Below are positions 61,374-63,088 of a DNA stretch of 64,000 nucleotides, piece by piece. Source of the stretch: a virus; IMG/VR virus record IMGVR_UViG_3300031673_000021, positions 1 through 64,000 of that record. The stretch is one strand, 5' to 3'. The translations under genes and the position numbers were made by a program. The notes under the pieces are model-generated. The model had not been told where the DNA came from, ran no database searches, and saw only the letters and a program-made list of their open reading frames with translations. How positions within the stretch are numbered: position 1 is the stretch's first letter; the number at the start of each line of letters is the position of its first letter.

Positions 61374-61394
61374 CACCACTCCTTTAGCGCGGAA

Positions 61395-61416
61395 GCCCCT
61401 GCCTTTAGGCATGGGG
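61395..61416 (+). repeat. IS left-end (LE) hairpin
   Basis: GCCCCTGCC-TTTA-GGCATGGGG: 4+4 bp with a bulged T and a TTTA loop. Confidence 0.7.
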
Positions 61417-61467
61417 AGGAAGCGCGTTTTTATTGATTCATTGAGCATTTTATGCTATGCTTTTAAC

Positions 61468-62541
61468 ATGAACATAACTTTGATGGTCAAGCTCATGCCG
61501 ACAACCGAACAACATAACGCTTTGCTTGGGACGATGGAGCGATTCAACGCGGCCTGTGGTGCGATTGCGGCGGTTGCGTTTGAACTGCACACGGCGAATA
61601 AGATTCGTTTGCAACAGGTGGTCTACGATGACATCCGCAAACGCTTCGGATTGTCCTCACAAATGACCGTCCGAGCCATTGCTAAGACCTGTGAAGCGTA
61701 CAAACGGGACAAGTCGATTCTGCCAACCTTCAAACCACATGGAGCCATGGTCTACGACCAACGTCTGTTGTCTTGGAAGGGGCTTGACCGCGTTTCCATC
61801 CTGACTTTGGATGGACGAATTCTGGTGCCAATTGTCTACGGTGCATACCAAGCTGCGAGACTCAAACGCATTCGCGGGCAAGCAGACCTCATATATCGCG
61901 ATGGCACGTTCTATCTGGCCGTCGTGGTTGATGTTCCCGAACCACCTAAGGGAACACCAGATGGCTGGCTCGGCGTGGATCTCGGCATAGCCAACATTGC
62001 TGTTGACTCTGATGGCGAATCATTCTCTGGCGCCCAAGTGAACGGCTTGCGGCATCGCCACGCGCGCCTTCGCCAGCGTCTTCAATCGAAAGGCACAAAG
62101 TCAACCAAACGACTACTCAAAAAGCGCCGCCGCAAAGAAGCGCGGTTTGCCGCAAATGAAAATCATCGAATCGCCAAGAAAATAGTGACGAAAGCCAAAG
62201 ACACCGGGCGCGGAATCTCCCTTGAAGATTTGAATGGAATCCGTGATCGGGTAACGGTTCGCAAGGCGCAGCGTCGTCAACATCATTCTTGGTCGTTCCA
62301 TCAGCTTCGCTCCTTCATCGAGTACAAGGCGATTCTTGCAGGTATACTTGTGCGTTCAGTTGATCCACGTAACACCTCTCGCACTTGCCCTGCTTGTGGA
62401 CACGTGGACAAAAAGAACCGTCCCACGCGAGATAAGTTTGAGTGTGTCGAGTGCGGATTCGCTGGTCCGGCTGACCACATTGCTGCGATCAATATTGGTC
62501 GCAGGGCAGCAGTCATACTGCCGTACGCGGGCGTAATTTAG
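61468..62541 (+). CDS. tnpB: TnpB (OrfB) RNA-guided-nuclease-family protein
   Basis: 357 aa from ATG 61468. 'WLGVDLGIANIAV' (RuvC-I Asp), 'ISLEDLNGIR' (Glu), zinc finger 'CPACGH...CVECGF', and 'ADHIAAINI' (RuvC-III Asp). Confidence 0.9.
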   Translation: MNITLMVKLMPTTEQHNALLGTMERFNAACGAIAAVAFELHTANKIRLQQVVYDDIRKRFGLSSQMTVRAIAKTCEAYKRDKSILPTFKPHGAMVYDQRLLSWKGLDRVSILTLDGRILVPIVYGAYQAARLKRIRGQADLIYRDGTFYLAVVVDVPEPPKGTPDGWLGVDLGIANIAVDSDGESFSGAQVNGLRHRHARLRQRLQSKGTKSTKRLLKKRRRKEARFAANENHRIAKKIVTKAKDTGRGISLEDLNGIRDRVTVRKAQRRQHHSWSFHQLRSFIEYKAILAGILVRSVDPRNTSRTCPACGHVDKKNRPTRDKFECVECGFAGPADHIAAINIGRRAAVILPYAGVI

Positions 62542-62549
62542 ACCCGCAA

Positions 62550-62571
62550 GCCCCCGGCTTTAGCCGTGGGG
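62550..62571 (+). repeat. IS right-end (RE) hairpin
   Basis: GCCCCCGGC-TTTA-GCCGTGGGG has the same 4+4 bp, bulged-T, TTTA-loop architecture as the LE. Compensatory changes occur in the loop-proximal 4 bp. Confidence 0.7.
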
Positions 62572-62572
62572 T

Positions 62573-63088
62573 CTATGACGCAAACTCCCATTCAAAGCCG
62601 AGTCCATGACATCGTTCATCGTACTTGGGCTTAATGGCACGCAATTGGCGCGGTTCCGCGTCTTTGTCCATCCACACACCATAGACGAAGGTCAACGCCT
62701 CTGCGACCGCATATGAACCGTCAGAACTCTTCTGTTGTGTCGTTACTTGCACAATGCACCCACCAGGCACGTTGCAGACCTTCGTGGATTTCATCCAACC
62801 TTGCTCTTGACTCGATGCCTTGCAGAGCAGTGCAAACGTATCTCCATCGCCGTAGACTTGCAAATCCGAGATGTTCGTCTTTGCACCGCGAACCTCTGTG
62901 ATTCCCATGTTCTTTTCTATAGTGGAATTGAGTTTGAGTTGTGGCGTCAGGCTCCCGCTTGCGATTGCCTGTTCAATCTGATCTGCCATGTCCCATGCCG
63001 AGTTTTCAATAGTCACGCCTTGATTGTCAATCATCCGGTCATGAATCAACTTCTGCAAGTCTGATCGAAATTGCGTACACTTATACAC
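62573..63088 (-). CDS. hypothetical protein
   Basis: 171-aa ORF whose TAG stop abuts or overlaps the IS right end. Confidence 0.55.
   Translation of the reverse strand: MYKCTQFRSDLQKLIHDRMIDNQGVTIENSAWDMADQIEQAIASGSLTPQLKLNSTIEKNMGITEVRGAKTNISDLQVYGDGDTFALLCKASSQEQGWMKSTKVCNVPGGCIVQVTTQQKSSDGSYAVAEALTFVYGVWMDKDAEPRQLRAIKPKYDERCHGLGFEWEFAS

Follow-up and report, generated by a model that had tools for sequence, protein, structure and literature searches.

Cas12 descends from TnpB, a nuclease whose natural role is the selfish maintenance of transposons. TnpB-driven homing has been established for elements of the IS605 family in bacteria (PMC10055086). In parallel, a 2026 review has described 'transposon non-restorative homing', by which such elements could in theory spread to phages or plasmids that co-infect the same cell (PMC13565253). 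The locus described here lies in a stretch of 64,000 nucleotides of viral DNA (the window hereafter), which corresponds to positions 1 to 64,000 of the IMG/VR virus record IMGVR_UViG_3300031673_000021. It consists of an element whose sole gene is tnpB, inserted into an operon of a soil phage between a gene for a Lockin-domain protein and a gene for a protein of 89 amino acids. This element is a tnpB-only (IS1341-type) member of the IS200/IS605 family that was probably inserted by a TnpA of the host and that probably persists or spreads by RNA-guided homing.

Limits of the element and its target motif

The element covers positions 61377-62579 (1203 bp) and is inserted 3' of the tetranucleotide TCAC with no target duplication. 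An initial annotation, made from the letters of the DNA, had drawn it from 61383 to 62580 and had proposed that relatives with an empty site would fix the boundaries and the target-adjacent motif (TAM). Such relatives were found and they did fix both, at the cost of the limits first given. In a sister phage without the element (contigs L156-L158), with flanks 98.3% and 94.7% identical to the window, CATCAC is directly followed by GCAAAC, where the occupied site reads CATCAC, the 1203 bp of the element and then GCAAAC. This empty site was reached via a protein 97% identical to the 89-amino-acid product, followed by a contig look-up; a pattern search of IMG/VR with the 89-amino-acid protein gave no relatives. 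In the same way, a contig from a second soil metagenome (run X2) skips exactly 1203 bases, from 61374 to 62578, with an ambiguity of 2 bases. Moreover, the pattern formed by the right hairpin and the bases following it was retrieved in 11 stretches of IMG/VR and in 105 stretches of bacterial genomes. About 90 distinct insertions are similar precisely up to ..GGGGTCTATGAC and have unrelated flanks from there on, which sets the right boundary between 62579 and 62580. Separately, the 18-mer predicted for the empty site was retrieved in two IMG/VR contigs, the flanks of which did not match the window by either blastn or tblastx; they were rejected as chance matches, of which about 1-2 are expected from a rough estimate of the size of the collection.

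The TAM side of the insertion is aTCAC (61372-61376, + strand), with the core TCAC at 61373-61376 and the element immediately 3' of it. Read on the minus strand, it is GTGAT and holds the old TGA stop codon of the Lockin gene together with the A of the ATG of the next gene. TCAC was found 12-15 nt upstream of the GGAAG motif of the left end in 51 of 60 independent left flanks. Position -5 of these 51 flanks is occupied by T in 22, G in 11, C in 9 and A in 9, and it is, judging from this distribution, free in the element family. The initial annotation had taken TTTAG, present at both ends, for the edge of the element or for the TAM flanking its left end, a role that belongs to TCAC. The sharing of TTTAG was put down to chance, as its left copy lies 7-11 nt inside the element and relatives do not share it. 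The right copy holds the stop codon of tnpB itself and part of an RNA stem-loop. The element had also been described as sitting exactly between a TAG stop codon (62573-62575) and an AAAGGAG ribosome-binding site (61380-61386). Both motifs are indeed at these positions, but they lie inside the element and do not mark its outer boundaries.

The TnpB protein and the gene content of the element

The gene tnpB (61468-62541, + strand) codes for a protein of 357 amino acids with the RuvC residues D171, E253 and D336 and a zinc finger formed by C307, C310, C326 and C329. Its open reading frame matches the Pfam families Cas12f1-like_TNB (PF07282, 8e-22) and OrfB_IS605 (PF01385, 2e-7), PHROG transposase families and, in the PDB, solved structures of Cas12f and TnpB (E 6e-9 for the TnpB of ISDra2). 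The three RuvC I-III residues and the four cysteines are invariant among 22 TnpB homologues, the catalytic residues being assigned via this family invariance and via Cas12f/TnpB alignments. The triad, whose possible disruption had been raised by the initial annotation, is thus intact, and the description of the gene as a solo TnpB with a RuvC D/E/D triad and a zinc finger holds. More than 6,000 homologues were found, the nearest of which are 82-85% identical and share the start MN(I/L)TLMVKL; the only match at 100% in the protein search is the phage contig itself.

The absence of TnpA was borne out on the scale of the whole replicon, since no Y1 transposase (PF01797) is encoded anywhere in the complete phage genome (73.6 kb; a record of 73,624 bp). 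The element is present in this genome as a single copy, a second copy having been searched for and none found, and there is no long antisense open reading frame within tnpB. Upstream of the gene, an extended -10-like box, TGCTATGCT (61453-61461, + strand), ends 6 nt before the ATG, with no ribosome-binding site. The same box, TGCTAT(G/A)CT, is found with the same 6-nt spacing before tnpB in two close relatives (L224 and L225). It may be an extended -10 promoter giving rise to a leaderless tnpB mRNA. A terminator scan returned a single weak candidate site, on the minus strand at 62154-62141, a number below that expected by chance.

The predicted omega RNA scaffold

By analogy with characterised TnpB systems, the initial annotation had proposed that an omega RNA (or reRNA) is encoded by the 3' end of tnpB together with the right end and that covariance models could be used to look for it. 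A conserved and covarying scaffold that ends at the right boundary is indeed predicted in this region (62475-62579, about 105 nt, + strand). It comprises the stems S0 (62483-62504), S1 (62505-62522, with the loop GTCATA at 62512-62517), S3 (62527-62547) and S4, which is the hairpin of the right end (62551-62571), followed by a tail (62572-62579) in which TATGAC (62574-62579) pairs with the loop of S1. The pairs were counted for the structure read from the window, on an alignment made by MAFFT without structural guidance from the terminal 125 nt of 40 elements, the TnpB proteins of which are 50-70% identical to that of the window. S1 is 92% paired with 3 pairs changed on both sides, and the inner pairs of S4 are 96.9% paired with all 4 changed on both sides. 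In 38 of 43 sequences, S3 pairs over its whole length, with 22 distinct arm pairs. S0 covaries by eye and its MAFFT columns are 49.5% paired, so that this stem is weakly supported. The pseudoknot that joins the S1 loop GTCANN (62512-62517) to the last six bases NNTGAC (62574-62579) is 98.3% paired, with 2 pairs changed on both sides (AU/UA/GC and CG/AU/UG/UA).

For S1, S4 and the pseudoknot, none of 500 shuffles reached the observed percentage of pairing or the covariation score, and pairing falls to 22-46% when the partners are slid by 1-3 columns. For S3, which lies across a variable linker and was therefore handled by a custom script, the shuffled arms had a mean of 3.6 of 5 pairs; this stem is rich in G.U pairs, which fits a tnpB-sense RNA only. 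The covariance model, built from 39 relatives with the window excluded, retrieved 62475-62579 at 87.4 bits (E 1e-22) over its full length. One other match fell below E 0.01, namely the left hairpin at 15 bits. No Rfam family, group I introns included, matched 60500-64000 at E<=1, and consequently no curated omega-RNA family covers the scaffold. The stems in the coding region, the pseudoknot near the guide and the end at the boundary of the element match, for a predicted RNA, the published plan of TnpB omega RNAs.

The predicted guide and the two alleles

As the scaffold ends at 62579, the guide is predicted to run from 62580 onward. The claim that it is the adjacent phage sequence thus stands, and its start at about 62575 does not. 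The predicted guide-encoding flank, GCAAACTCCCATTCAAAGCC (62580-62599, + strand), is positioned from the boundary of the right end and runs antisense to the final codons of the Lockin gene; by analogy, the guide itself would be 16-20 nt long. The guide 16-mer has a single occurrence in the window, directly after TGAC, which differs from the TAM by one base. In the empty allele of the sister phage (L156-L158), ATCAC is directly followed by 20/20 identity to 62580-62599, and the predicted target reads ATCAC and then GCAAACTCCC... Because TCAC and a 20/20 guide match occur together there, the empty allele is a complete predicted target. Because TGAC and not TCAC stands before the guide match, the occupied allele is predicted to be protected.

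The two alleles were also found together. In run X2, small contigs that match internal stretches of the element without a difference occur alongside the empty-site contig (depth 7.3), as does a contig that crosses the left junction (61272-61422, depth 3.6), which places both alleles within one community. These depths are those of low-depth contigs and not of reads, and are weak as quantities. The initial annotation had suggested an action of the nuclease on element-free phage alleles, and this suggestion has gained a concrete predicted target (TCAC and a 20/20 match) as well as the co-occurrence of the alleles in one metagenome.

The following course of events is proposed. The element would have entered single-stranded phage or prophage DNA by a peel-and-paste reaction, the insertion being most likely catalysed in trans by a Y1 TnpA from a host-resident element with the same ends. 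Thereafter, transcription of tnpB and the omega RNA would start at a short promoter within the element and run against the phage operon. The complex of TnpB and omega RNA would spare the occupied allele and cut the empty one in sister phages that co-infect the cell or already reside in it. Repair of the break by recombination with the occupied genome would then bring a copy of the element into the site ('non-restorative homing'); alternatively, the rival would simply be handicapped by the cut. The insertion itself would be tolerated, as the right end provides a stop one codon past the break and the AAAGGAG of the left end, at a 5-nt spacing, would replace the lost translational coupling.

It has to be considered that the cut mainly kills or handicaps rival sister phages, the copying of the element being incidental. 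Such competitor exclusion would make use of the same guide and TAM match to the rival allele and of the same coexistence of alleles, and phage homing endonucleases are documented to kill competitors (PMC13565253). Nevertheless, flanks that are 95-98% identical should allow easy recombinational repair from the occupied genome, which would convert rather than kill the rival. This explanation is regarded as quite improbable, and the present data do not separate it from homing. A regulatory function was weighed as well, in which a dead or binding-only TnpB (TldR-like) or an antisense transcript would tune the Lockin gene and the downstream genes. The element is antisense to the operon, its guide region is complementary to the 3' end of the Lockin mRNA, and phage-borne TnpB-derived repressors exist (bioRxiv 10.1101/2023.11.30.569447). 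Yet the RuvC D/E/D triad is intact and invariant, the full transposon ends have been kept and, in the occupied genome, TGAC instead of the TAM precedes the only match of the guide, all of which leaves very little room for this function.

Several points weigh against homing as proposed. The occupied allele is represented by one full genome and by short contigs of low depth (2-4) in run X2, and the three short empty-site contigs (from ENA, JGI and Logan) probably come from one sample. A cognate TnpA was not found adjoining these ends in five host genomes or in any of the retrieved loci, and a generic sigma-70 promoter scan of the element, which bears on transcription from its own promoter, returned none that passed. 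In addition, the first TAM position is A here, T being the most frequent base there (22 of 51), and the intact open reading frame could simply reflect a recent insertion. In the main rival explanation, the element is an inert passenger that a host TnpA recently dropped into a prophage and that has no relevant activity, is near-neutral and will decay. The single copy of the element, the one full genome on record for the occupied allele and the greater depth of the empty allele in run X2 (7.3 versus about 3.6) would all fit such a passenger. All parts of the element are intact, from the open reading frame with its catalytic residues to the two ends and each helix of the omega RNA, which argues mildly against it, and the nearest relatives are found in the same antisense layout between other small genes, which suggests a lineage that persists in phages. 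An inert passenger is judged unlikely, and RNA-guided homing of an element inserted by a host TnpA is retained as the probable explanation.

The ends of the element and their distribution

The left end (61377-61426, + strand) starts with CACTCCTTTAG, and the architecture seen in its fold is the same in relatives, with covarying outer stems. Its outer stem GCGC (61387-61390 paired with 61422-61425) encloses the tetranucleotide GAAG (61392-61395, + strand) and, 3' of it, the subterminal hairpin CCCC TGCC TTTA GGCA T GGGG (61396-61416). The right end (62551-62579, + strand) is made of the hairpin CCCC CGGC TTTA GCCG T GGGG (62551-62571) and the tail TCTATGAC, with TGAC (62576-62579) as the equivalent of the cleavage site. 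Both hairpins have a TTTA loop and a bulged T, and their inner four pairs differ by compensatory changes. The covariation that the initial annotation had noticed between the two hairpins extends to 40 relatives, in which the inner four pairs are 96.9% paired with double changes at all four. On the other hand, the alignment of the two ends over about 40 nt, TTTAG included, was not upheld, as their real similarity is confined to AAGCCCC..GGGG.

In both ends, the tetranucleotide 5' of the hairpin foot matches the cleavage site, GAAG with TCAC on the left and CAAG with TGAC on the right, the two differences being complementary. A minority TAM, TCAT, accompanies A and not G at the last guide position 5' of left hairpins, in small numbers and with some TCAT calls in the table being picking artefacts.

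Many TnpB and IscB elements of Bacillota, Chloroflexota and Armatimonadota carry this right end, so that the ends define a transposase specificity shared by different cargo. Y1 TnpA is encoded in four of five bacterial genomes with this right end, in none of them beside such ends. Two loci carry IscB as cargo (RRXRR and HNH domains, 417-482 amino acids) closed by the hairpin and TCTATGAC (L072:1021-2832 and L064:2579-4300). IscB is encoded there on the opposite strand relative to that right end, and an upstream GGTCATAG is able to pair with the terminal CTATGACC. Single-hairpin mini-units, about 55-60 nt long and with unrelated flanks, were observed at L042, L044, L076, L084, L098 and L106. 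They are laid out as TCAC, the first 20 nt or so of the left end, one hairpin and the right-end tail TCTATGAC, and look like solo scars of recombination between left and right hairpins or minimal non-autonomous elements. In run X1, the probable source sample, the Logan assembly breaks the 73.5-kb phage contig at the right-end hairpin (62550-62579). Several short contigs of this run with other flanks share the left or the right hairpin, which indicates related elements in the same community. Finally, a GC-rich hairpin elsewhere in the window (22370-22444, minus strand), formed by AAAGCCCCTGCCC, TTAA and CGGGTGGGGGC and followed by TTTTTGCG, is superficially like those of the element and looks like an ordinary intrinsic terminator.

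Insertion at a gene junction of the phage

The genes on both sides of the element are encoded on the minus strand and tnpB on the + strand, hence the antisense orientation. In the empty allele, the upstream gene codes for 170 amino acids and ends with ..TTT GCG TGA, this TGA overlapping the ATG of the 89-amino-acid gene by one base; the element landed in this translationally coupled TGATG stop/start junction. The tail of the right end, which reads GTCATAGA on the minus strand, supplies the TAG stop of the Lockin gene (62575-62573). The protein has 171 amino acids versus 170 in the empty allele, with one residue gained (Ser171) and 168 of the 170 identical. On the other side, the ribosome-binding site AAAGGAG of the 89-amino-acid gene (61380-61386, minus strand) lies within the first ten bases of the left end and is absent from the empty site. 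It now stands 5 nt before the ATG, and both the coupling and the native GGGAG, located in the empty site within the 3' end of the Lockin gene 8 nt before the ATG, have been lost.

More generally, the right end has stop codons in two of the three reverse frames, and the reverse complement of the TAM contains TGA. A run resembling a ribosome-binding site opens the left end in 16 of 60 members of the wider family and is not general there. The TGA in the complement of the TAM and such a start of the left end may explain both the landing at gene junctions and its tolerance there. Of note, the complement of the TAM and left-end start ATCACCACTCCTTTAG (61372-61387) is an extended ribosome-binding site followed by GTGA, and ATCACCACTCCTTTAG resembles the 3' end of the 16S rRNA, ..GATCACCTCCTTTCT.

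The closest relatives of the element (L224:2900-4111, L225:700-1920 and L227:2890-4110, 82-84%) are likewise antisense between small minus-strand genes. Their left ends open with a run of pyrimidines, which on the strand of the genes resembles GGAG and precedes the next start codon by 5-10 nt. In L224, the only relative in which these points were worked through, a purine-rich start of the left end stands ahead of the downstream start codon, the stop codon of the upstream gene (4093-4095) lies inside the right end, and the neighbourhood holds an endolysin and an integrase. A bolder explanation is that this TnpB lineage has adapted to temperate phages, with ends that make antisense insertion at junctions translationally harmless through an outward-facing ribosome-binding site on the left and stop codons on the right, and spreads by homing in the absence of a transposase, beside Lockin and perhaps hitch-hiking with it. 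Such an adaptation is considered rather improbable.

The IMG/VR record that contains the window, its first 64 kb, has direct terminal repeats and is rated complete. A portal protein, a tail sheath, baseplate and other myovirus-type proteins are encoded on the minus strand of the window, and the phage carrying the element is a complete, myovirus-like one. The upstream gene (62573-63088, minus strand, 171 amino acids) matches the crystallised Lockin core of PDB 9p8l over residues 57-147 (E 3.4e-41) and has, beyond this core, an extra N-terminal part of 56 amino acids and a C-terminal tail of 24. IMG/VR has 32 loci with homologous cores of 70-83% identity, and two Bacillus phages carry such a core as well; local scans of the window proteins against Pfam and PHROG did not pick up the domain. 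The Lockin family is an anti-Thoeris sponge for 3'cADPR (bioRxiv 10.1101/2025.07.12.664507). The product of the gene is, from its similarity to 9p8l, a Lockin-family protein, and its role as a 3'cADPR sponge is predicted by family membership. The downstream gene (61104-61373, minus strand, ATG at 61373-61371) codes for the 89-amino-acid protein, which is 97% identical in the sister phage and belongs to no known family.

Comparison with known systems

The element shares with the IS1341 group of the IS200/IS605 family the subterminal imperfect hairpins, the absence of inverted repeats and of target duplication, and tnpB as the only gene. This gene content combined with the IS200/IS605 architecture assigns it to that group. 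The initial annotation's view of a solo TnpB element is thus refined into a solo element of IS200/IS605 type with hairpins, a TCAC target and no duplication. Like IS608, the element inserts 3' of a fixed tetranucleotide and has a tetranucleotide at the hairpin foot that matches the cleavage site, the target being TTAC in IS608 and TCAC here. That of ISDra2 is TTGAT. The element differs from IS1341, IS608 and ISDra2 in its location on a phage replicon and in a right end shared with IscB-carrying elements.

The nucleases of ISDra2 and of the Geobacillus IS605 elements, which act with omega RNAs (Karvelis 2021; Meers 2023, PMC10055086; PDB 8EXA, 8H1J), are RuvC and zinc-finger proteins of about 360-410 amino acids, as is the TnpB described here. 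In these systems the scaffold, which includes a pseudoknot, spans the 3' end of tnpB as well as the right end and stops at the boundary. The flank serves as the guide, and the target site of the transposon as the TAM; the same is predicted for the element. In contrast, its TnpB is only distantly similar to theirs, and its scaffold is short (about 105 nt) and has no Rfam match. Since the replicon lacks TnpA, the 'restorative' kind of homing that follows excision is not open to the element, and only homing from allele to allele is. Two other kinds of element were compared and set aside. TldR is a nuclease-dead TnpB repressor, and the catalytic triad is intact here, with a guide that matches the insertion site only and no promoter. 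An IStron would require a group I intron, which the Rfam search of 60500-64000 did not find, and the element is antisense to the operon that it interrupts.

A phage copy devoid of tnpA can profit from its nuclease only via other phage copies, which makes it an RNA-guided counterpart of the homing endonucleases. In the free-standing homing endonucleases of phages, exemplified by T4 SegF and its localized marker exclusion, the nuclease gene likewise lies between two conserved phage genes. Their target is the insert-free allele of a related co-infecting phage and the interrupted site provides self-protection, as predicted for the element. The target is recognized there by a protein, whereas an RNA guide and a 4-nt TAM are predicted here. 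The concept has already been published, and the value of the locus is that of a clean testable example, with no new principle. It gives material for direct tests, with exact limits, a TAM, a predicted guide, a natural empty allele that carries a perfect target and alleles that meet. It also indicates that insertion within a translationally coupled phage operon is possible without destroying either neighbour. The closest phage case is the tnpB of cyanophage A-1(L), which is present in one phage and absent from its close relatives and for which homing has been proposed (bioRxiv 10.64898/2026.02.14.705889). The distribution is alike here, and the present locus differs from that case in that it documents where exactly the empty site lies, which TAM adjoins it, how the omega-RNA scaffold covaries and that both alleles co-occur.

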